Positions 12,025 through 28,756 of a stretch of DNA of 64,000 bases are shown here, in pieces (position 1 is the stretch's first letter; every line of letters starts with the position of its first letter). Location of the stretch: positions 1 through 64,000 of IMG/VR virus record IMGVR_UViG_3300044825_000904; one strand, written 5' to 3'. This DNA comes from a virus. The position numbers and the translations under genes were made by a program. Below the pieces are notes generated by a model, which saw only the letters and a program-made list of their open reading frames with translations, ran no database searches and was not told the origin of the DNA.

Positions 12025-12290
12025 TAGTTGTACAAATATACTAAAAACAAATGAAATGTACAATATGTAAACTTGCAAACTTTTTTGCCACATTACGTAA
12101 ATATATTTTTTTATTTTGAGCGTGTGAAATTTTTTTTACTTTTCTTATTTATTTTGTTCATTTTGTTCATAAAAGAATAAATACTTAATATAAATAACTA
12201 ATAATCAATAAGTTAAGTGGTTGTAAGAAAATACAAGTTGTACATATTTTGTACACAAAGAAGTCACAAAAGTGTACGAATTGTATAAAC
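12025..12290. other. AT-rich origin-like region 1 (TGTACA-type repeats, IHF-like site)
   Basis: Several TGTACA/TGTTCA units; AATCAATAAGTTA at 12203-12215; homologous to 21600-21815. Confidence 0.45.
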
Positions 12291-17936: not shown

Positions 17937-18174
17937 TGGACTATTGTCCAAGACACGCAGACACCTTCGGGAGAGAGGGTTGCGGTACGCAAGTGTGGTA
18001 GGTGGTAAGAATTTATTGGTGCTTAAAGCATCAGGCGATTACCACTACCTACTCATCCAATTCGATGCTCTGCCTGAGCACTGGTTGGAGCAACAACGCT
18101 ACTTTAACATTAAGATAGCGAGTGCTTTAAATTACGAGCAATTAACTAACGCAATAGACAGATATTTAGTATGA
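17914..18174 (+). CDS. Hypothetical protein
   Basis: Packed ORF. Confidence 0.55.
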   Translation: MGRKITPDGLLSKTRRHLRERGLRYASVVGGKNLLVLKASGDYHYLLIQFDALPEHWLEQQRYFNIKIASALNYEQLTNAIDRYLV

Positions 18175-18362
18175 CACAAGAAGAATCAGAAAAAGAATAC
18201 AAGGCAGATAGTCTAGTTATTATTATAAAAACTAAGGATGATACATATCATCAAGTAGCATTAAATAAAAAAGAAGTAGCATTAGTATTTGGTTTAATAG
18301 ATCAGATGCACAATGGAGTAGTAAAAGTTTTAGAAGAAAAAATTAATTACTTAACATTTTAA
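18171..18362 (+). CDS. Hypothetical protein
   Basis: ATGA-coupled ORF. Confidence 0.6.
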   Translation: MTQEESEKEYKADSLVIIIKTKDDTYHQVALNKKEVALVFGLIDQMHNGVVKVLEEKINYLTF

Positions 18363-18373
18363 ACAACAAAACA

Positions 18374-18637
18374 ATGCCAGAATTTAATCACGATGTTGAA
18401 ATAGATATCTCTCCGTGGGAGTACGTAAGAGAATGTTCAGATAGCGAAATTAAAGAATTGCTTGAAGAAATTAGAGATAAAGGGTATAACATACCTAATG
18501 GTATTTTTAGAGATACTCATAAGTTAAGTGTCAGGGAAATTGAATTTGAGGATGCAATTGAAAAGATTAACTTAAACTACCTTAGATTATCTTATGAACA
18601 AGAAGAATACATTTTAAATTTATCTAAATCATTATGA
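18374..18637 (+). CDS. Hypothetical protein
   Basis: Starts within TAAACAACAAAACAATG. Confidence 0.65.
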   Translation: MPEFNHDVEIDISPWEYVRECSDSEIKELLEEIRDKGYNIPNGIFRDTHKLSVREIEFEDAIEKINLNYLRLSYEQEEYILNLSKSL

Positions 18638-19193: not shown

Positions 19194-19787
19194 ATGTCTA
19201 ACAAATCAGTGTTCGAGCAGTTATCTGCTCTCAACCTCTCATCCAAAGTCGAGAAGAGGGGTCAATTATCTTACCTTTCTTGGGCTACTGCTTGGGCAGA
19301 ATGCAAGAAATTATTCCCTGACATGACACGTACGGTGTACGAATCAGAGACTGGGATGAATTACTTTTCAGATGGGGCTACGGCTTGGGTCAAGGTTGGT
19401 GTTACCATCAATGGCTTGGAGTACATTGACTATCTACCAGTAATGAATCACATGAACAAGTCTATCCCACTAGCTAGTCTTACATCGTTCGATGTGAACA
19501 AAACTATTCAGCGTTCCACGGTTAAGGCGTTGGCATTACACGGCTTGGCTCTTAACATCTATGCCAAAGAAGATTTCCCTGAGGCAACCGATGGCACTCC
19601 TGCTAAGGTGGTGGCTAAACCTGCAGGCAAGATTGCTCTTGTGGTAGGGGATGCGAACTGGGAGAAAGTAGTCAACTATGTTGTCGATAACATAGGGCTA
19701 AAGTCTGAGGATGTGTTCAAGAACTTATCCAAGAAGTATGAGTTATCAGATCAAGTCAAGTCAGCAATCAATAAACTTAAGAAGTAA
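19194..19787 (+). CDS. Sak/Sak3-type ssDNA annealing protein (DUF1071)
   Basis: VEK...LSYLSWA.AW; VKVGVTI; LPVM...NK; NKTIQR..VKA.A.HGL.L.IYA.ED. Confidence 0.85.
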   Translation: MSNKSVFEQLSALNLSSKVEKRGQLSYLSWATAWAECKKLFPDMTRTVYESETGMNYFSDGATAWVKVGVTINGLEYIDYLPVMNHMNKSIPLASLTSFDVNKTIQRSTVKALALHGLALNIYAKEDFPEATDGTPAKVVAKPAGKIALVVGDANWEKVVNYVVDNIGLKSEDVFKNLSKKYELSDQVKSAINKLKK

Positions 19788-20182
19788 TGGAGAATGTATT
19801 TAAAAAAGGAGATAAGGTGTTTCATTATTTATATAAATGGGGAACCGTCACAAATGATTATAAAATAAATAATTCAGGTGATTTTTATGTAGAAGTTAAA
19901 TTTGATAATAGTAGTCAAAATTATTTTCAAAATCTTAAAGATGCATTTCTGCTATCTTTTACCGAATATACACTTGAAGGATTCAGCCAAGAGCGACCTG
20001 AAGAATTACCTAAGAAAGGTCAGATTGTATGGGGAAGAGATAAAGATTATCAAAATTGGCACATATATCATTTTTCACATAAATCAGATGATGGTTTATA
20101 TCATTTATCAAGTGATAATTCAAGAAGTGCATATATTTTAAAACAAATAACAACTGAAAATCCATACGCAAATGAGAAATAA
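19787..20182 (+). CDS. Hypothetical protein (FK.GDKVF...LSFTEY.L.GF family)
   Basis: Paralogous to 21828-22127. Confidence 0.7.
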   Translation: MENVFKKGDKVFHYLYKWGTVTNDYKINNSGDFYVEVKFDNSSQNYFQNLKDAFLLSFTEYTLEGFSQERPEELPKKGQIVWGRDKDYQNWHIYHFSHKSDDGLYHLSSDNSRSAYILKQITTENPYANEK

Positions 20183-20906
20183 CATCTTAGAAACATTGAA
20201 AAACGATTCAGAATACTATTCTGGAATTGGTAAGCAGTACCTATCTAACTCAGACATCGGAGCTCTATTGTACAACCCTACGCAGTATGGTGTGCCGAAA
20301 GAAAAGACTCCTGCTATGCTTGCAGGGTCTTACTTTCACACGTTCATCCTTGAGCCTGAGAAGTTAAAGAACTTTATGGCAGTGGAGGCATCGACACGTA
20401 CGACTAACTTGTACAAAGATGCGTTAGCCTCCTCAGGTGCTGACATGTTATTACTTCAGAAAGAAGTTGATGATTGTGAACGCATGGCTAAGGCATTGAT
20501 GGGAAACCTAACGTTTTACGATATGATCCGTGACTCAGCTAATGCGTACGAGGTTCCGGCAATCGGTGAGATTGGTGGCGTACAATGGAAAGGTAAGTCG
20601 GATATTGTAGGTGATGAGATTCTTATTGACCTAAAGACCACTGCTAACCTTGATGACTTTAAATTCTCTGCACGTAAGTATAACTACGACTCGCAGGCTT
20701 ACATCTACAACCAATTATTCGGTAAGCCTATGGTGTTTATCGCAGTAGAGAAAGATAGCTGTCGTACGGGCTTGTTTGAATGCTCAGATGAGTTCTTAGA
20801 TCGTGGCAGAGAGAAGGTCTACAAGGCCATCGAGGTGTACCAAAAGTTCTTCGGGCCAAATGCGACCGATGACATTACTCAGTATTTTAAATTAGAAACG
20901 CTATGA
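20172..20906 (+). CDS. RecE/ExoVIII-like PD-(D/E)XK exonuclease (DUF3799-like)
   Basis: LSNSDI; GS.FH..ILEP; KGKSD...IDLKTT; YNYDSQA..Y. Confidence 0.85.
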   Translation: MRNNILETLKNDSEYYSGIGKQYLSNSDIGALLYNPTQYGVPKEKTPAMLAGSYFHTFILEPEKLKNFMAVEASTRTTNLYKDALASSGADMLLLQKEVDDCERMAKALMGNLTFYDMIRDSANAYEVPAIGEIGGVQWKGKSDIVGDEILIDLKTTANLDDFKFSARKYNYDSQAYIYNQLFGKPMVFIAVEKDSCRTGLFECSDEFLDRGREKVYKAIEVYQKFFGPNATDDITQYFKLETL

Positions 20907-21599: not shown

Positions 21600-21815
21600 T
21601 ACCGTTCTAGTGTACAAATGAACAAAATATGTGGGACTTAGATGAATATATATTTTTTCTTTTTAGATAAATTATTTTTTTCTCTTTTCTTATATATTTT
21701 GTTCACTTTGTACATAATCAAAGAGTAATAAATATAACTTATTATAAATCAGTAAGTTATAAATGTAAACTTTAAAAAAAAGTGTACACTTTTTCGTGTA
21801 CAAATGTAAACTTTA
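21600..21815. other. AT-rich origin-like region 2 upstream of primase
   Basis: TGTACA x4, AATGTAAACTT x2, AATCAGTAAGTTA at 21747-21759. Confidence 0.5.
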
Positions 21816-21827
21816 ACTTAAAACGAC

Positions 21828-22127
21828 ATGGAAAGATTTAAAGCAGGTGATAAAGTATTCGATATAAGATATGGTTGGGGGGAAGTTGGAAGAGTAGCAA
21901 CAGATGATTACGTATATGTTTTTTTTGATGATATATCTCTTTGGTATAGAGGTGAAGGTTCTCGAATTCTTTCATTTACTGAATACGCATTGCAAGGATT
22001 TACCGCTGAAAGGTTAGAACCTAATTGGGATTCGATTTATAAGGATTGGTCTAATGATGGCAGCGACCTTAAATACAGAGAATATTTAGCTATAAACTTC
22101 GAACCACCAGTACGCAAATGCAAGTAA
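21828..22127 (+). CDS. Hypothetical protein (paralogue of 19787-20182)
   Basis: FKAGDKVF...GWG.V...LSFTEYALQGF. Confidence 0.7.
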   Translation: MERFKAGDKVFDIRYGWGEVGRVATDDYVYVFFDDISLWYRGEGSRILSFTEYALQGFTAERLEPNWDSIYKDWSNDGSDLKYREYLAINFEPPVRKCK

Positions 22128-24496
22128 CTATTTTTTCTAACATAAAAGAGACATCTGTCCCATTCTACCGGGATGTCTTGGCTATACTCTCAAGAGTCAA
22201 GGAGGGTAAGTCCAAAGACATTGTCCGCAAGATTAGATTGGAGAAAGATAAGGAGCTACGTAACAAGCTCAAGCAAGAGTTGCCTGCGATATGTTTCTCA
22301 GGTACGTTCTCTAAGCGTGAAGACTCGGCTCTTATGGAGCATAGTGGTCTGATATGTTTAGACTTCGATAACTTCCCATCAAGTGATGAGATACTAGCCA
22401 AGAAAGATGAACTGGCTAATGACCCTTATACGTTTTCAGTTTTTATATCACCATCAGGTAATGGCCTGAAGGTATTGGTTAAGATACCAAAGGATGCAAG
22501 CAAGCACAAGTCATTCTTCAATGCACTGGAGGCTTACTATAACTGCGAGCAGTTTGATAAGACATCCAAGAATGTGTCACGTGTGTGCTACGAGTCATAC
22601 GATCCGACCATCTTTGTTAATGTAAACTCTATTGAGTGGAACAAGGTGGATGATGCAGAGATTGAGCACGTGACTAAAGACATGAGACCAACCATCCCTA
22701 TCGATGATGAGAACGAAATCATTAATAGACTTGCTAAATGGTGGGACAATAAGTTTGGCTTCGTGTCAGGTGCACGCAACAATAATTTGTTCGTGCTTGC
22801 TATGGCGTTCAACGAGTATGGCGTATCTAAGTCTGAGGCGATGTATCGTATGATGGCGTTCGCATCGGAAGACTTTACAACCAAGGAGATTCAGGGTATC
22901 ATTGACTCAGCTTATCGTCATACAGACAAGTATGCTACCAAGTACTTTGAGGATACATCACGTGTTGACTTTGCAAAGAATCAACTTAGCCGTGGCGTGC
23001 CAAAAAAAGACATCCGTTCTCAATTGAAAGCCTCCGGAGTGGAGGACGGAACGATTGATTCAGTACTAACTAGAATCGAGGAGGAGCAAAGCAAGAATAC
23101 ATTCTGGACTAAGAGTGACAAGGGTGTGGTGACATTGATACACTACGAACTAAAGACATTCTTAGAAAACAATGGGTATCGCAAGTATGTACCTGAGGGT
23201 AACAAGGGTTTCATCTTTGTACGTATTAATCAAAACTTAATTGAGATGTGTACTGAGGATGACATCAAGGACTTTGTGTTAAACCATATCCTTAATAACT
23301 TCCAGGACCTAAGCGTATATAATTACTTTGCTGACAAGACTCGCTTCTTCAGGGAGGACTTCTTGTCTATGCTTGACTCGGTCAACATCTACTTTGTAGA
23401 GGACACAAAGGATGAGGCGTACCTATACTTCAAGAATGGTGTGGTCAAGGTGACTAAGAATCAAACTGTCCTATTAAACTATGAGGACTTAGGTGGCTAC
23501 GTTTGGTCAGACCAAGTTATCCAACGTGACTTCATATTCTGTCCTGCAGATGAGTGTGATTACAAAACATTCATTCGCAACATCGGTGGCAATGATGACC
23601 AACGTGTGGCATCCATCGAGTCAACCATTGGCTTCATCCTTCATGCATTTAAGAATGGTGGCTACTGCCCTGCGGTAATCATTAATGATGAGGTGATATC
23701 GGAGAATCCTGAGGGAGGTACTGGTAAGGGTCTATTTATGAACGGCATAAGTCGCATGAAGAAGGCAGTCACCATTGATGGTAAATCATTCTCATTTGAT
23801 AAGTCTTTTGCTTATCAGTTAGTTAGCACAGACACGCAGGTGTTGGTGTTTGATGATGTGAAGAAGAACTTTGACTTTGAGCGTTTATTCTCTGTGGTTA
23901 CTGAGGGTATCACGGTTGAGCGTAAGAACAAGGATGCAATTAAGATTCCATTCCATAAGTCACCAAAGGTTGTCATCACTACTAACTATGCTATCCAAGG
24001 TAAAGGTAACTCATTTGAGAGGCGTAAGTGGGAGATGGAGTTCAAGCAATTCTATTCTAAAGACTTCACACCTCAGGATGAGTTTGGTCGATTGTTGTTC
24101 AATGATTGGAGCCAAGATGATTGGTGTGCGTTCGACAACTATATGATCAAAGTATTGCAAGGGTACCTGAATACTGGTCTAGTTAAATGTAACTTTGTGA
24201 ACCTTAAAGAACGCAAGTTCAGGGCAGAGACTAACGCTGAGTTTGCTGAGTGGGCTCACGAGTTTGGGCCATCATTCATACCGATGAATCAGCGATTCAG
24301 ACCTGATGATGTGTTCGATAAGTTCATAGCGGATAACAACGGCATGTTCCGTATGCTATCTAAGCAACGATTTAATTCGTGGCTACGTACCTACTGCTTG
24401 CATATGACAGGAAGCAACCCTGTAGAGGGTCGTGATGGTGCAGGGAAGTGGATGGTGTTCCCATTAAAAGAAGATAAACAATTAGAACTATTATAA
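22118..24496 (+). CDS. Primase-helicase (BT4734/VirE-N primase-polymerase + PriCT + SF3-like helicase)
   Basis: KQELPAI.FSG.F; SGLICLDFD; FISPSGNGLK; GARNNNLF; GGTGKG Walker A; VFDD; TTNY. Confidence 0.88.
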   Translation: MQVTIFSNIKETSVPFYRDVLAILSRVKEGKSKDIVRKIRLEKDKELRNKLKQELPAICFSGTFSKREDSALMEHSGLICLDFDNFPSSDEILAKKDELANDPYTFSVFISPSGNGLKVLVKIPKDASKHKSFFNALEAYYNCEQFDKTSKNVSRVCYESYDPTIFVNVNSIEWNKVDDAEIEHVTKDMRPTIPIDDENEIINRLAKWWDNKFGFVSGARNNNLFVLAMAFNEYGVSKSEAMYRMMAFASEDFTTKEIQGIIDSAYRHTDKYATKYFEDTSRVDFAKNQLSRGVPKKDIRSQLKASGVEDGTIDSVLTRIEEEQSKNTFWTKSDKGVVTLIHYELKTFLENNGYRKYVPEGNKGFIFVRINQNLIEMCTEDDIKDFVLNHILNNFQDLSVYNYFADKTRFFREDFLSMLDSVNIYFVEDTKDEAYLYFKNGVVKVTKNQTVLLNYEDLGGYVWSDQVIQRDFIFCPADECDYKTFIRNIGGNDDQRVASIESTIGFILHAFKNGGYCPAVIINDEVISENPEGGTGKGLFMNGISRMKKAVTIDGKSFSFDKSFAYQLVSTDTQVLVFDDVKKNFDFERLFSVVTEGITVERKNKDAIKIPFHKSPKVVITTNYAIQGKGNSFERRKWEMEFKQFYSKDFTPQDEFGRLLFNDWSQDDWCAFDNYMIKVLQGYLNTGLVKCNFVNLKERKFRAETNAEFAEWAHEFGPSFIPMNQRFRPDDVFDKFIADNNGMFRMLSKQRFNSWLRTYCLHMTGSNPVEGRDGAGKWMVFPLKEDKQLELL

Positions 24497-24641
24497 TGAG
24501 CATACTTAAAAAGATGAAGAAGCAGTGGTATAAAATAAATAAAGATAACATTGAGGTCATCAAAGAACAGAGAGACGTAAGAGAATTGCAAAAGTTCATT
24601 AAAGAAATTCAACAACTTTATAGTATTAAATCTTATAATAA

Positions 24642-25040
24642 ATGAATGATTCAGAAAGACTAGGTCGAATTGAAATGGCTATTATTGGAATACCATTACA
24701 TTATGAAAACCTAAAACAAATAGAAGAAATGAAACTAGAAATGTTTGAAAAATTGTACGATAAAATAACAAAAAACAAAGAAAAATATAGGATACAAGAA
24801 AACTATAATGGATTTGTTGCTCAGGTAAAATTAGTAGGAGATACTTGGTATAGAGATATTCATAGTAGCTGTCCATTATCTCATCATACTTTAGATCACC
24901 CATTAGATTCAAGTAATTACGTAGATTCATTTGATAAAGCTAAAGATGTTATTGAAGCAAGAAAGAAAGCGATTAAAGATAGGCAAGCCTTTTGGGATGC
25001 AAATCGCAAACCAGAACCAAAATATCATAACATAGACTAA
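24642..25040 (+). CDS. Hypothetical protein
   Basis: 132-aa ORF. Confidence 0.6.
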   Translation: MNDSERLGRIEMAIIGIPLHYENLKQIEEMKLEMFEKLYDKITKNKEKYRIQENYNGFVAQVKLVGDTWYRDIHSSCPLSHHTLDHPLDSSNYVDSFDKAKDVIEARKKAIKDRQAFWDANRKPEPKYHNID

Positions 25041-25041
25041 C

Positions 25042-25698
25042 ATGCCATACTTAAATCATAATATCCCAACACTAACTTGCTTCATTAGAAATGAGTTCTT
25101 GTTTAACCATACCAAAGGACATGGAGAGCACACATTGTGTGACGTTCACTCGGTCGCATCAATAGAGAAGAGAACGCCTTTGTTTGAGGCATTCTTGGAG
25201 AACGGAGTCAACTGGACACGTAGACCTATTCACGCATTCTGTTGGAGAAAAGATGCAGAGGAGCTACCACTGACTGAGTACATGTATTGGGACTGCTTTA
25301 GTTCATACGTAGATGTTCAGGTAAGAGCAAGAATGTCAGGACTGAGAGCAGATTTGCTGTCCATCTCAGGGATCAAGAGACAAGGCACGTACTTGTTTAC
25401 ATTGGACTGGGCATTTGAGAACAGAAGTATGTTAGATACCAACTTCTCTGAGACACCTGAGCATAAGTGTGGTCATGTATTCAAGATGGACAATGGCAAT
25501 TACTTTATCTACCCAAACAATAGAATTATTTGGATGGATAACGCTTGGACTTATAACAGAATAGATAAGAATCCAGGCTATCAAATTGATATGTCGGTTT
25601 ATTCTATTGAGAATAAGGCAGGATACGAGACAGATTATAGTTACCTAACAGAATTTAAACCACAAGACAATGCCAATATACACAGGATATTCAGATGA
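25042..25698 (+). CDS. Conserved phage hypothetical protein
   Basis: YLN.NIP...WDCFS...YLFTLDW...EHKC.H...NGN...PNNR. Confidence 0.8.
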   Translation: MPYLNHNIPTLTCFIRNEFLFNHTKGHGEHTLCDVHSVASIEKRTPLFEAFLENGVNWTRRPIHAFCWRKDAEELPLTEYMYWDCFSSYVDVQVRARMSGLRADLLSISGIKRQGTYLFTLDWAFENRSMLDTNFSETPEHKCGHVFKMDNGNYFIYPNNRIIWMDNAWTYNRIDKNPGYQIDMSVYSIENKAGYETDYSYLTEFKPQDNANIHRIFR

Positions 25699-25900
25699 TG
25701 GTTCAGATATGCAAGAATTTCAAGGTATGCATGTTTCATCGTGTGGTAACTTTTGGGGATCTGAGCCTTTCACAAAGCAACAAGAGAAGGCTATGAGGAA
25801 GGATGCCTACAAAAAGAGAATAAGAAATATAATGAACTCACAGTTTAATTCACAGAAGGACATTGATGTCCCTCTGTCAAAACAACAAGACAATGGATAA
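25670..25900 (+). CDS. Cassette ORF 1, hypothetical
   Basis: ATG in the repeat; ends KQQDNG. Confidence 0.65.
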   Translation: MPIYTGYSDDGSDMQEFQGMHVSSCGNFWGSEPFTKQQEKAMRKDAYKKRIRNIMNSQFNSQKDIDVPLSKQQDNG

Positions 25901-26102
25901 TATAGTATACTTTCAGTCACCTGATATCAACCCAAGATACTGCGAAGCAGGAATGATTTCTGAAACAGACAAGGATTACATTTGGTATCTAGAAGAACCA
26001 TGCAAAATATTAATAACAGATGTAAAAATGATACCCAAAGAAAACGTTACTTACAACAAGAAGCGTAGGTTATATGAGCTTAAACCACAAAACAATGACT
26101 GA
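25893..26102 (+). CDS. Cassette ORF 2, hypothetical
   Basis: ATG in the repeat (MDNIVYFQSP); ends KPQNND. Confidence 0.65.
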   Translation: MDNIVYFQSPDINPRYCEAGMISETDKDYIWYLEEPCKILITDVKMIPKENVTYNKKRRLYELKPQNND

Positions 26103-26409
26103 AGATAAACTATATAGTGCTATAGAAAATGCCATTATCAAATGGGTTATTGATGGTACTAAAACAGCAGGTTCTCTAACAAGAGAGATTATGTTAATAC
26201 TTAAACAACAAGACATCTATTGGAGAACAGACAAGCCCCCAAAAGTTGGTCAATACATCATTAACATTGGTGCTAATGGTATCAGTTGGGGATGGTGGGA
26301 TGGTAACAATTGGAGAAAATTATGGCACGAGTATCAGATAGATGTATCTGGTTGGTTGCCTACACCTTTACATAAACAACAAGACAATGGGATGGAAATC
26401 AACAATTGA
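26095..26409 (+). CDS. Cassette ORF 3, apparent fusion with a DUF551-like C-terminal half
   Basis: MTEDKLYS...KQQD-IYWRTDKPP...W.WWDG..W...V.GWLP.P; internal repeat copy. Confidence 0.65.
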   Translation: MTEDKLYSAIENAIIKWVIDGTKTAGSLTREIMLILKQQDIYWRTDKPPKVGQYIINIGANGISWGWWDGNNWRKLWHEYQIDVSGWLPTPLHKQQDNGMEINN

Positions 26410-26581
26410 TATAACGAGGACGCAAGCTCTTGCTCTTGTTATAGATTACGCATTACAATGCGGTACTTTGTCTGACTCAGAACTAGAGGACTTATTAGAG
26501 ACTCTTGGCTACGGAGACAATCAGACGTTACCTTATTTTGGATATAATTTTAACATAACTAGACAACAAGACAATGAATGA
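26387..26581 (+). CDS. Cassette ORF 4, hypothetical
   Basis: MGWKSTIDITR...; ends RQQDNE. Confidence 0.65.
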   Translation: MGWKSTIDITRTQALALVIDYALQCGTLSDSELEDLLETLGYGDNQTLPYFGYNFNITRQQDNE

Positions 26582-26807
26582 TGAAATTAAAATGTACGAA
26601 GATAAACTAAAAATGGCTGACACAGGTGGATATACTATTAAAGGATTTATACCAAGCCCGTTTAGTGTATCATTTAGTTGGGAAGGAGAAACTATTACAA
26701 TAGAATTAAAAGAAGGTAAGGATGTGCTAAAACTTGCATCAGTTTTTTCTTTAATGCTTACAGAGAATGGTATTGAACACAATATTAAACAACAAGACAA
26801 TGCCTGA
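26574..26807 (+). CDS. Cassette ORF 5, hypothetical
   Basis: Ends KQQDNA. Confidence 0.65.
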   Translation: MNDEIKMYEDKLKMADTGGYTIKGFIPSPFSVSFSWEGETITIELKEGKDVLKLASVFSLMLTENGIEHNIKQQDNA

Positions 26808-27093
26808 TATAGCAAAATGTAAAGGAGATGAGTGCCAAAAGAAGCAGATGTGCTATAGGTACACAGCAAAAGCGAGTGACTACCAGTCATACTTTATGAC
26901 TCCACCAATGAAGGAGGATGGCGAATGCGATCACTTCATGGAGATATGGGATAAACCCAAGGAGTTAATGCGAATAAAAAACGGACAAGTCTACATTGAT
27001 GGAGAACTTATACCTGAAGAATTATTACTATCGGTTTACAGAGAATTTTTAAGCAGTCAATACCCATGGAACAAAGAAAACAAACAGCAGTAG
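26800..27093 (+). CDS. Cassette ORF 6, Cys-rich hypothetical
   Basis: MPDIAKC.G.EC.....CYRY...YQSYF..PP.....C. Confidence 0.7.
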   Translation: MPDIAKCKGDECQKKQMCYRYTAKASDYQSYFMTPPMKEDGECDHFMEIWDKPKELMRIKNGQVYIDGELIPEELLLSVYREFLSSQYPWNKENKQQ

Positions 27094-27308
27094 AGTGGTT
27101 AGAAGAGTTGTTGCACTTTGAATGTAAATATAGTCTTAATAATGAAGTAATAATTAATTATGATGTATTAGATAACATTATTATGAAAAGCAAACAAATG
27201 GAGGAAGATAAAATAAGAGAGGCTTATTACAGGGGTGTCCGAGATGAGATGCAAAACATAGGGAAAGACTTTGAAGATTATTATAAAGAAACTTATGGAA
27301 AAGAATAA
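27066..27308 (+). CDS. Hypothetical protein (KQTAVEWL family)
   Basis: KQTAVEWL...I.EAY...YYKETYGK. Confidence 0.7.
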   Translation: MEQRKQTAVEWLEELLHFECKYSLNNEVIINYDVLDNIIMKSKQMEEDKIREAYYRGVRDEMQNIGKDFEDYYKETYGKE

Positions 27309-27579
27309 AACAACATTAAGGTATTTTATGGAGAAGATTATCCGAATGCCTACAGATAGTATACCGAACTTTCTTAGAGTTATTGGATTGCAGTATCTTA
27401 TATCTGAAAGAAAACAAATACTTGACGCTTGGAACGATGGCTACGAAAAGGGTTTAAGAACAAGAGAAGAAAAGATTTCTAACCCTGCATTTGATGCAGA
27501 AACTTATTACGCAAATAATTATGATACAACTAAGGGATTACCAGAAGAAGATAGTAAACGACGGGCTTGGCATTATTAA
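27295..27579 (+). CDS. Hypothetical protein
   Basis: ERKQILDAW..G...AETYY; start moved to 27295. Confidence 0.6.
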   Translation: MEKNKTTLRYFMEKIIRMPTDSIPNFLRVIGLQYLISERKQILDAWNDGYEKGLRTREEKISNPAFDAETYYANNYDTTKGLPEEDSKRRAWHY

Positions 27580-28756
27580 AGAGCATGGTCTGCTGTATCT
27601 TTCTATGGAAGTAAGGACCGGTAAGACCATGACATCACTAGCTATCTGCGATGCATTAGGTGCTAAAGAAGTATTGTTCATCACTAAGTTAAAGGTGGTG
27701 CCAGGTATTAAGAAAGACCATAAAGATTTAGGTTGTAACTTTAACCTTACGTGTGTAAACTATGAGTCATTACATAAACTTGAGGGGACAAATTGGAACC
27801 TCATAATTTGTGATGAGGCACACACCATGGGTGCATTCCCTAAGCCTAGCAAAAGAGCGAAGCAAGTTAAAGATTTGGTGAAGAAGTCTAACGCAAAGGT
27901 TATATTTCTATCGGGCACACCGACACCTGAGAGTTACTCTCAGATATACCACCAGCTTTATGTGCATCCTAATAACCCATTCAAATCTTATGCTAACTTT
28001 TACCGGTGGGCTAATGACTATGTTAAAGTAAAAATAAAGTACATAGGTGCAATGAAAGTTAATGACTACTCAGGTGCGTTGAAAGATAAAATTATGGATG
28101 CCATCAAGTATCTAATGATATCATTCACCCAAGAGAAAGCAGGCTTCACTACATCAGTAGAGGAGGCAGTGCTTAGAGTTGGCATGAGCCCTTTGACTTA
28201 CAAGTTGGCTAACAAACTGAAGAAAGATTCAGTTGTGCAAGGTGATGATGACACGATACTTGCTGACACTGGGGCTAAGATGATGAACAAGTTACATCAG
28301 ATGTACTCAGGCACCATCATCCTTGAGTCAGGCAGAAGACTAGTGTTTGACTACACCAAGGCTACCTACATCAAGGATCAGTTCAAGAACAAGAAGATAG
28401 GAATCTTTTATAAGTTCAAGGCTGAGTGGGATGCATTAAAGTTTGTGTTTGGTGATGAGTTGACTGATGACCTTGAGGAGTTCAATACAACTAGCAAGAA
28501 CATTGCTCTTCAGATTGTATCAGGACGTGAAGGTATTAGCCTCCGCAACGCTGACTTCTTGGTGTACTATAACATAGATTTTAGTGCAACATCTTATTGG
28601 CAAAGCAAGGATAGGATGACCACCATCGACCGCAAGTTTAACAAGGTGTATTGGGTGTTTACGATTGGAGGAATCGAGGAAAAGATTTACGAAGTGGTTC
28701 AACAAAAAAAGGACTATACCTTAAACTTCTTCAAGAAAGATTTCTTAAATTCGTAG
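27521..28756 (+). CDS. SF2 (SNF2-like) helicase
   Basis: QLRDYQ; MEVRTGKT; DEAH; LSGTP; SGREGISL; QSKDR. Confidence 0.9.
   Translation: MIQLRDYQKKIVNDGLGIIKEHGLLYLSMEVRTGKTMTSLAICDALGAKEVLFITKLKVVPGIKKDHKDLGCNFNLTCVNYESLHKLEGTNWNLIICDEAHTMGAFPKPSKRAKQVKDLVKKSNAKVIFLSGTPTPESYSQIYHQLYVHPNNPFKSYANFYRWANDYVKVKIKYIGAMKVNDYSGALKDKIMDAIKYLMISFTQEKAGFTTSVEEAVLRVGMSPLTYKLANKLKKDSVVQGDDDTILADTGAKMMNKLHQMYSGTIILESGRRLVFDYTKATYIKDQFKNKKIGIFYKFKAEWDALKFVFGDELTDDLEEFNTTSKNIALQIVSGREGISLRNADFLVYYNIDFSATSYWQSKDRMTTIDRKFNKVYWVFTIGGIEEKIYEVVQQKKDYTLNFFKKDFLNS

Follow-up and report, generated by a model that had tools for sequence, protein, structure and literature searches.

A repeated 17-mer start junction between accessory-gene cassettes of a phage, and its possible use as a short-homology crossover point

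The modular theory of Susskind and Botstein is said to have postulated boundary or ‘linker’ sequences for the exchange of modules between lambdoid phages, and boundary sequences have been noted in HK620/Sf6-type genomes. Phage accessory-gene regions are sites of turnover of anti-defence and host-takeover genes, where the swapping of whole, undamaged genes has so far been explained mostly by chance and selection. In T4-type phages, promoter-early stem-loops (PeSLs) have been described, for which exchange between neighbouring repeats gives excised mini-circles (Arbiol et al. 2010, PMC2839356; Comeau et al. 2014, PMC4122927). The start-associated sequence (SAS) of Cluster K mycobacteriophages is a 13-mer with a Shine-Dalgarno (SD) core complementary to the 3′ end of 16S rRNA, located 3–7 bp before the start codon; it belongs to a high-GC actinophage setting and was not linked to cassette shuffling (Pope et al. 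2011, PMC3203893). Here we describe a 17-mer which, judging from sequence comparison, probably serves accessory-gene cassettes as a portable start junction and at the same time as a site of short-homology crossover. It supplies a concrete, testable rule for whole-gene swapping.

The window analysed comprises 64,000 nt, positions 1 to 64,000 of the IMG/VR record IMGVR_UViG_3300044825_000904; the whole record, of 104,271 nt, resembles two joined phages. A search of the window for TAAACMACAARACAATG with up to two mismatches gave seven matches against 0.11 expected, and the motif is clearly non-random, a count of seven being reached in 0 of 100 shuffles. All of the matches, which begin at 18360, 25656, 25879, 26081, 26373, 26560 and 26786, lie on the + strand. 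The motif is asymmetric and no inverted copy was found in the window. Six copies, together with one degenerate copy that has no ATG, are located between the primase and SNF2-helicase genes. The initial annotation had listed seven copies in this array, of which six are present; the one at 26202 is degenerate, matching at 14/17 positions and having lost its ATG. The copy placed at 25880 is also present, but the match begins at 25879, with an A there replacing T. An eighth copy, reported at 18360–18376, was found there, on the + strand. It is used differently: the upstream gene (18171–18362) ends at its TAA, and the gene at 18374–18637 starts at its ATG.

The array lies in a hyperplastic region in which all of the genes are on the + strand. 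Its conserved left anchor is a VirE-like primase/helicase gene (22118..24496), and its conserved right anchor is a SNF2/ResIII-type helicase gene (27494..28756). The primase gene is followed by two accessory genes of 49 and 132 aa (24496..25040) without the motif and by a 218-aa gene (25042..25698, phrog_3704), the 3′ end of which bears motif copy 1 (25656..25672). Next come an ORFan cassette of 76 aa (25670..25900) with copy 2 (25879..25895, one mismatch), an ORFan cassette of 69 aa (25893..26102) with copy 3 (26081..26097), and a two-cassette fusion of 104 aa (26095..26409) that contains the degenerate copy (26202..26218) and copy 5 (26373..26389). Two further ORFan cassettes, of 64 aa (26387..26581) and 77 aa (26574..26807), carry copy 6 (26560..26576, one mismatch) and copy 7 (26786..26802), respectively. 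The last copy leads into a semi-conserved Cys-rich gene of 97 aa (26800..27093, phrog_20586), beyond which are two more variable small genes (27066..27579) that are motif-less in this genome. Each cassette overlaps its neighbour. Pfam and PHROGs searches of the accessory genes returned no family other than phrog_3704 and phrog_20586.

The six array copies provide the ATG of the ORFs starting at 25670, 25893, 26095, 26387, 26574 and 26800, in agreement with the first reading of the locus. Each upstream array ORF reads through the 17-mer as K/R-Q/P-Q-D/N-N, again as previously noted, and stops 2–9 codons further on. The ORFs had also been called unrelated, and the cassette proteins indeed have no detectable mutual similarity (best pairwise E-value 0.011).

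A common peptide tail raises the question of whether the repeat is simply the conserved C-terminus (KQQDN) of one diverged protein family, or else an artefact of metagenome assembly. K-Q-Q-D-N does end most of the upstream ORFs, the comparison genomes (designated here by L numbers) are metagenome assemblies without exception, and the window's own record has the composite appearance noted above. We nevertheless regard this explanation as hardly credible. At 27 17-mer junctions the upstream ORF reads through the motif in 21 cases, stops at the motif TAA in three and does not reach the motif in the remaining three. The 17-mer is a nucleotide-level element rather than a peptide tail, given these three frame contexts. 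Descent from a peptide tail or from paralogues was rejected because conservation is just as strong at junctions where the motif is non-coding or supplies the upstream stop through its TAA, and because the cassette proteins are unrelated. Two genomes from different samples, L136 and L139, have identical gene maps in the primase–helicase interval, which argues against an assembly artefact. A repeat of 17–20 nt is also shorter than the k-mers that assemblers usually employ, and this too counts against an artefact.

We also considered the possibility that the 17-mer is the usual start context of this phage. Over 14 positions, the array copies have 0–1 differences from the consensus, whereas all 86 other gene starts of the phage have 4–13; the distribution is bimodal and this possibility was rejected. 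Conservation is sharp-edged, extending from −15 to +3 with a sudden drop beyond. The genes of this phage in general lack SD sequences, an SD-like 4-mer being present at 6/91 gene starts against 8% of random windows. In Bacteroidia, the determinants of SD-less initiation are A at −3, −6, −12 and −13 within an A-rich −14 to −11 stretch (Baez et al. 2019, PMC6847099). The 17-mer has A at −1, −3, −5, −6, −8, −9 and −11 to −13 and so reproduces the pattern of PMC6847099. The phage-wide start profile, with A peaks at −14 to −12, −6/−5 and −3, follows the same pattern. The motif RNA is predicted to be unstructured (84th–99th percentile of predicted unpaired probability), and its sites are thus predicted to have the low structure around the start that accompanies SD-less initiation in Bacteroidia. 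The motif additionally has a conserved C at −10, −7 and −2 and G at −4, for which generic starts of the phage show no preference.

A stop codon in the −1 frame within three codons of the ATG was found in 67% of motif-preceded genes compared with 16% of controls (Fisher p ∼9e-7). This makes the cassettes plug-compatible, and translational coupling between them probable. The initial annotation held that coupling is maintained across the junctions; the built-in −1-frame stop past the downstream ATG supports this indirectly, and coupling itself we infer. On the mRNA, the motif would present an unstructured A-rich initiation region in, or just past, the end of the upstream gene. Because each cassette opens with an out-of-frame stop, a ribosome on the upstream gene would terminate 2–9 codons past the downstream ATG, and it could then start the next gene, such that coupling would consist of termination and re-initiation. 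Since each cassette ends with a start region and begins with a stop, any crossover at the joint should yield two expressed genes.

Sequence conservation of this kind might also mark an RNA operator through which a phage factor co-regulates the cassettes, with recombination being secondary. Precedents exist in T4, where RegA is a translational repressor and RegB a processing nuclease. Two observations would suit an operator: the exact conservation goes further than generic initiation calls for and takes in the AUG, and the motif is limited to early/accessory genes on one strand. We consider this distinctly unlikely, however: no candidate regulator was identified, the scanned accessory genes being without family, and the motif drifts at orthologous joints where the gene is retained. 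A PeSL-type role as promoter or terminator was rejected, there being no consensus boxes and no hairpins. Neither sigma-70-like nor Bacteroidota −33/−7 boxes occur in or at the 17-mer, and promoter and terminator consensus sequences are not in excess in the array, as judged with Bacteroidota promoter models that are crude. A putative promoter is located near 21.7 kb.

Among 22 close relatives the primase–helicase interval varies from 196 to 4107 nt, and its gene content differs in nearly all of them. Alignment to related phages had been proposed as a check on the initial annotation; gene content proved not to be fixed, and shared blocks start and end in the motif. Blocks shared with L120, L140 and L145 stop at 25672–25674, in copy 1, and resume at 26781–26786, in copy 7. 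The L145 alignment has a block beginning at 25880 (copy 2), both L140 and L145 have blocks beginning at 26080/26081 (copy 3), and these two genomes have blocks that stop at 26215 in the degenerate copy. L120 fuses 25674 straight to 26785, and the 20-nt overlap at this point is the motif. The recombinant joints at the motif are seamless to the base and each recreates an identical 17-mer.

Individual cassettes are found in different company in different genomes. A homologue of the 25670 cassette lies in L132 at an upstream locus, ∼5 kb upstream of the primase gene and between two motif copies, and L127 keeps a 27-nt remnant of the same cassette. The 25893 cassette in L145 directly follows the 218-aa gene and is itself followed by a different cassette. 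For the 26387 cassette, a homologue with 93% aa identity follows a copy of the motif in L050, a short unrelated contig, where the upstream neighbour differs; the 26574 cassette has no homologue among the fetched loci. The Cys-rich 97-aa gene has at least nine different upstream neighbours across genomes. The first gene of 27066..27579 has motif-preceded homologues in L121, L127, L132, L137 and L138. A second cassette hot spot is marked by the copy at 18360, as L128/L129 have two extra motif-bounded genes inserted at the matching position and the L132 homologue of the 25670 cassette occupies this upstream locus. Taken together with the alignments, the 17-mer joint appears to be a place where relatives acquire, drop and rearrange whole genes.

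The gene at 26095..26409 illustrates fusion. In L140, L145, L123, L128/L129 and L005, the first 42 codons form a gene of their own. Counted from the sequence, the cassette periods are 1 mod 3 throughout and 0 mod 3 only at the 26202 copy. This fits a 1-nt deletion which, together with a change of ATG to ATC, would have put both cassettes in one frame.

Rearrangement is not confined to the motif. The two accessory genes at 24496..25040 are missing from L120, L140 and L145, and their junction has only ∼10 nt of microhomology (24496–24510 against 25042–25055). Other motif-less rearranging joints include the primase stop, with its TAATG/ATGA variants; a breakpoint near 26921 lies within the Cys-rich gene, and the 27-nt remnant of the 25670 cassette in L127 is a further case. 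The proposal of a shared junction allowing gain, loss and shuffling of cassettes thus holds in that breakpoints fall in the motif, but needs qualifying, since there are also motif-less joints and breaks inside genes. Furthermore, the genes overlap, so that selection against broken genes would likewise restrict the surviving breakpoints to the joints, and a match of breakpoints to the motif cannot be separated from a match to gene ends. The 3′ joint of the 218-aa gene also counts against the junction reading: it drifts among relatives, reading KPQDN, KKEDN or KEEKK, and the exact sequence is therefore not required for expression.

These observations bear on the most serious alternative, in which the motif is merely an expression signal for early accessory genes and has no causal part in the shuffling. 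Genes would then be moved by ordinary illegitimate or microhomology-based recombination, and selection would retain the arrangements that leave genes intact. The 17-mer has at least an equal claim to be a translation start region of the Bacteroidia type, common to diverged phages, and recombination may therefore be a side effect of conserving an expression signal. The agreement with Bacteroidia initiation determinants, the lack of structure, the conservation in diverged phages and the equal variability of motif-less joints in the same region all fit this explanation. Against it, the joints are base-exact and always recreate the same 17-mer, and the C residues at −10, −7 and −2 and the G at −4 are conserved, unlike in generic starts. 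Finally, distant relatives have their own, different repeated start-proximal sequences, which fit within-lineage homogenisation better than an optimum imposed by the host; other junction dialects were seen in L174, L157 and L164. We regard the expression-only explanation as doubtful, while giving it real weight.

If the 17-mer is indeed also a crossover point, its action on DNA would be simple. The 17–18 identical bases flanking unrelated genes would act as short direct repeats, between which crossover or strand annealing could take place inside a single genome, during co-infection by relatives or from one locus to another. Whole genes would be lost, added or put in a new order by such exchange, and now and then fused, with a working joint always rebuilt. 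The likely catalysts would be the phage's own enzymes. As had been stated, the phage encodes a Sak-like annealase and a nuclease: a Sak-type single-strand annealing protein is encoded at 19194..19787 (+ strand; PF06378, E 6e-33) and is conserved in all close relatives, and a PDDEXK (DUF3799) nuclease at 20172..20906 (+ strand; PF12684, E 3e-22) is the likely exonuclease partner of Sak. A length of 17–18 nt is short for annealase-driven exchange, however, and this counts against recombination at the motif.

Among the matches listed, several motif copies each were present in L005, L011, L019, L050, L051, L059, L061, L081 and L111, divergent phages that were picked up by the motif search itself and so are subject to ascertainment. 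The second phage within the window's record also has several copies. Searches of a phage collection with DNA and protein gave distant matches only, and no named cultured relative with the motif was found; relatives of the primase occur in phages of Flavobacterium, Nonlabens, Polaribacter, Cellulophaga, Maribacter and Bacteroides. The carriers would form a clade that infects Bacteroidota hosts in which initiation does without SD pairing. A more far-reaching possibility, which we think unlikely, is that the 17-mer is a universal linker of this clade, with a host or phage factor driving SD-independent re-initiation and with unrelated Bacteroidota phages trading single genes from a shared pool. 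The phages concerned would include ∼64-kb phages, a DnaB-type phage and a 288-kb contig. Were this true, it would be true integrase-free cassette exchange, each cassette terminating its predecessor and starting its successor.

The array had been described as an ‘integrase-free, integron-like array’. The integron-like part of this label fails on two features: a search with PF00589 over the whole 104,271-nt record gave no match, with controls positive in 14/14 genomes, and the site is no attC-like hairpin. Identity with an integron was rejected on both the missing integrase and the missing attC-like structure. A true site-specific, integron-like system in which an unrecognised recombinase acts on the 17-mer could account for the single orientation of the array, its identical boundaries, the lack of a detected internal promoter and the occurrence of the same cassettes at two loci. 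It is very improbable, given that a search of the 104-kb record for tyrosine recombinases gave none, that the motif is asymmetric, unstructured and without an inverted copy, and that crossovers also occur in degenerate copies, as between L121 and L136, where the crossover lies at 5 nt of microhomology.

The portable start junction that we favour may have uses beyond phage evolution. For Bacteroidia, in which SD-less translation remains poorly understood, the 17-mer would be a compact natural signal for initiation and coupling that might find use as an expression part. We found no description of it in the literature on Bacteroidia initiation, on PeSLs or on shuffling at start-proximal or RBS repeats.

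The 17-mer shares features with each of the systems described at the outset. PeSLs, like the 17-mer, are short repeated regulatory sequences bordering ORFans in hyperplastic regions; in both, the repeats are where the indels and replacements that distinguish close relatives have their breakpoints, and recombination is homology-driven with no need of an integrase, which for the 17-mer is judged from comparison of genomes. A PeSL, however, is an intergenic sigma-70 promoter with a terminator hairpin, whereas the 17-mer has neither and is only 17–18 nt long. It includes the start codon, sits in the upstream coding sequence and would act on translation within one operon. The SAS and the 17-mer are both short and asymmetric, have one orientation, lie directly upstream of the starts of non-structural genes of many families and are rare elsewhere, and for both a role in translation initiation has been proposed. 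Unlike the SAS, the 17-mer is A/C-rich with no SD core; it runs up to the start codon and contains it, most upstream genes read through it, and rearrangement breakpoints coincide with it. Integrons resemble the array in their same-orientation single-gene cassettes, repeated boundaries and lack of a detected internal promoter; the array differs in having no IntI, attI or attC hairpins and no evidence of site-specific excision, and exchange in it looks homology-driven. Lambdoid linkers are likewise short conserved border sequences that would permit the homologous swap of non-homologous modules. Those linkers are few and contested, whereas here one defined 17-mer stands at many single-gene borders in diverged phages.

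We searched the 64-kb window, which opens a 104-kb IMG/VR virus record, for the pattern TAAACMACAARACAATG, allowing up to two mismatches, and obtained seven matches, all on the + strand, at 18360, 25656, 25879, 26081, 26373, 26560 and 26786. Shuffling gave an expectation of 0.11 matches, and none of 100 shuffles reached seven. An eighth copy, at 26202, is degenerate, keeping 14 of the 17 positions and having lost the ATG. Start codons for small ORFs at 25670, 25893, 26095, 26387, 26574 and 26800 come from the six intact copies of the array. At each of these six joints the upstream ORF reads the motif as K/R-Q/P-Q-D/N-N and stops 2–9 codons later. This is the arrangement described in the initial annotation, except that one position, 25879, differs by a base. 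Mutual comparison of the cassette proteins detected no similarity between them, and almost all are without a Pfam or PHROG family.

The array lies between the genes for a VirE-type primase/helicase (22118–24496) and an SNF2-type helicase (27494–28756), within a long run of early and replication genes on the + strand. Other products of this run are a Sak single-strand annealing protein (PF06378, E 6e-33), a PDDEXK nuclease and a VRR-NUC nuclease. Relatives of the primase are found in phages of Flavobacterium, Nonlabens, Polaribacter, Cellulophaga, Maribacter and Bacteroides. A T-rich 44-nt direct repeat with TTTG-containing boxes (12129–12172 and 21674–21717, 89% identical) has both copies in non-coding regions that open early gene blocks, at ∼12.1 and ∼21.7 kb, and an inverted repeat (21783–21802) adjoins the second copy; early promoters and operators may reside here. 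Because no promoter or terminator consensus stood out in a search inside the array, and given the candidate early promoter region at the 44-nt repeat, the array probably belongs to one polycistronic transcript.

The genes of this phage are without Shine-Dalgarno (SD) sequences, an SD-like 4-mer being present at 6 of 91 starts compared with 8% of random windows. Around the gene starts, adenine frequency rises to peaks at −14 to −12, −6/−5 and −3. The same pattern has been described in Bacteroidia, whose initiation is promoted by A at −3, −6, −12 and −13 (PMC6847099). The motif has an A at every one of these favourable positions, and structure prediction places its RNA in the 84th–99th percentile of the region for being unpaired. 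Among 28 distinct copies from the window and its close relatives, conservation is limited to −15 to +3, with background levels on either side. The motif is not simply the generic start context of the phage: over the 14 upstream positions, array copies have 0–1 mismatches to the consensus, whereas all other gene starts have 4–13. Ordinary starts show no preference for C at −10, −7 and −2 or for G at −4, all of which the motif conserves. The KQQDN peptide can also be rejected as the conserved unit. Across 27 junctions, the upstream gene reads through the motif at 21, the TAA of the motif is the upstream stop codon at three, and at the remaining three no upstream ORF extends to the motif; with three frame contexts in use, the constraint must act on nucleotides rather than on the peptide.

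Of 27 distinct motif-preceded genes, 67% have a stop codon no more than three codons from the ATG in the −1 frame, the one used by the upstream read-through, compared with 16% of 90 control genes (Fisher p ∼9e-7; Mann-Whitney p ∼5e-8). Therefore, each cassette opens with a terminator for its predecessor and closes with a start region for its successor, as would be expected if the joints were interchangeable and downstream translation relied on ribosomes that terminate a few bases beyond the start. We infer that translation is coupled at the joints. The cassette periods equal 1 mod 3 at all joints except the degenerate copy at 26202, where the loss of 1 nt and a change from ATG to ATC would have brought two cassettes into a common frame and fused them. 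Codons 1–42 of the 104-aa ORF that spans this copy (26095–26409) stand as a separate gene in the IMG/VR loci L140, L145, L123, L128/L129 and L005. The degenerate copy thus fits with plug-compatible cassettes.

A primase search of IMG/VR provided 80 loci for comparison, 22 of which have core genes 78–96% identical to the window at the DNA level. Across these 22 close relatives, the primase–helicase interval is between 196 and 4107 nt long and carries a different set of genes in almost every one, and the blocks in common with the window start and stop in the motif. In L120, 25674 is fused straight to 26785, the motif forming a 20-nt overlap; in L140, 25672 meets 26080 and 26215 meets 26781; and L145 joins 25672 to 25880 and has an unrelated cassette after its counterpart of copy 26081. 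The single joint of L136 combines the left half of one degenerate L121 copy with the right half of another, the crossover falling within five shared bases. The 42-aa gene occurs in five different contexts and the 69-aa gene (25893–26102) in two, and at least nine different genes precede the Cys-rich gene (26800–27093) in one genome or another. A second hot spot, whose place in the window corresponds to the copy at 18360, lies 3–6 kb upstream of the primase; it contains the 76-aa gene (25670–25900) in L132, and the 42-aa gene with two extra inserted cassettes in L128/L129. The initial annotation had proposed cassette exchange at the motif, as opposed to fixed gene content or breakpoints elsewhere. 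As content is variable and the blocks end in the motif, the alignment favours exchange.

Overlap between the genes means that surviving breakpoints would also be concentrated at the joints by selection that keeps genes intact. The same region also rearranges at motif-free joints, such as the primase stop, and one breakpoint is near 26921, inside the Cys-rich gene. L127 keeps a 27-nt remnant of the 76-aa cassette, and the motif has drifted between relatives where orthologues of the 218-aa gene (25042–25698) end. The comparison genomes are assemblies throughout. Usual assembler k-mer sizes exceed a 17–20-nt repeat, and L136 and L139, from separate samples, have identical gene maps in the primase–helicase interval.

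Within the Cys-rich gene, the N-terminal 40 residues are conserved in nearly all relatives and the C-terminal part is replaced, and a conserved tail overlapping the helicase start is joined to the gene in L122 and L140, so that shuffling also occurs at the level of domains within the gene. The starts of the 49-aa gene (24496–24510) and the 218-aa gene (25042–25055) have ∼10 nt in common after the ATG; because L120 is without the 24496–25040 insert, this microhomology is the apparent joining point of the insert. The 218-aa gene (phrog_3704) has 66–67% DNA identity to Synechococcus myophage genes annotated as PurM or hypothetical, and is therefore an accessory gene common to phages whose hosts belong to different phyla.

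An exact-pattern scan of IMG/VR matched more than 119 loci, most of them single copies that probably match by chance. Ten unrelated or distantly related contigs, including one of 288 kb, have 2–5 copies within a few kb beside homologues of the window's cassettes, a set biased by having been found via the motif itself. Bases 64001–104271 of the window's own record, the DnaB-type replicon of an apparent second phage, encode a DnaB-type helicase. They carry one exact motif copy, at 92451, which follows a gene whose family has the motif at its end in several lineages. The close relatives of the window phage are contigs of 60–68 kb, and the rest of the record matches window DNA in two short stretches only. 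The 104-kb record appears to hold two different phages and may be a chimeric assembly.

The motif is absent from relatives whose primase is 53–59% identical. Some of these have repeated start-proximal sequences of their own, and repeated palindromes too. L174 (3350–7319), L157 (1635–4400) and L164 (3517–4718) have stop-spacer-start junctions of 12–13 nt ending in ATG, with 3–6 copies each before different small genes, which resemble further dialects of this architecture. Such lineage dialects fit better with homogenisation by recombination, or with phage-factor co-evolution, than with a single host-imposed optimum. A perfect 16–17-nt palindrome has many early-region copies in L163 (12 copies), L170, L195, L191, L167, L162 and L165, with lineage-specific variants in L174–L176, L187 and L190; these may be operators, terminators or elements similar to PeSLs.

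The most economical reading of the anatomy, statistics and comparative pattern has two parts. In the mRNA, the 17-mer would be a portable SD-less start and coupling joint; in the DNA, it would be a short direct repeat and a site of annealing or crossover. Exchange at this repeat would delete, insert, reorder and sometimes fuse genes, with Sak and the PDDEXK nuclease as the likely catalysts. The observations of the initial annotation are confirmed and its motif-based cassette exchange is partly supported; its likeness to an integron does not hold: the array differs in having no tyrosine recombinase in the 104-kb record and no attC-like hairpin at the motif. Closer parallels are the PeSLs of T4-type phages, in which modular shuffling breaks at a regulatory sequence repeated at the borders of ORFans (PMC2839356), and the Start-Associated Sequences of Cluster K mycobacteriophages, which are conserved, oriented, start-proximal repeats before unrelated non-structural genes (PMC3203893). 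PeSLs, however, have a promoter and terminator, whereas the motif has neither and would act within an operon; and unlike the Start-Associated Sequences it is SD-less, contains the ATG and is tied to rearrangement. The element is a further variant among these known shuffling and start-repeat systems, distinguished by its Bacteroidia-type SD-less design, its built-in −1-frame stop, its three frame contexts and its occurrence across diverged phages.
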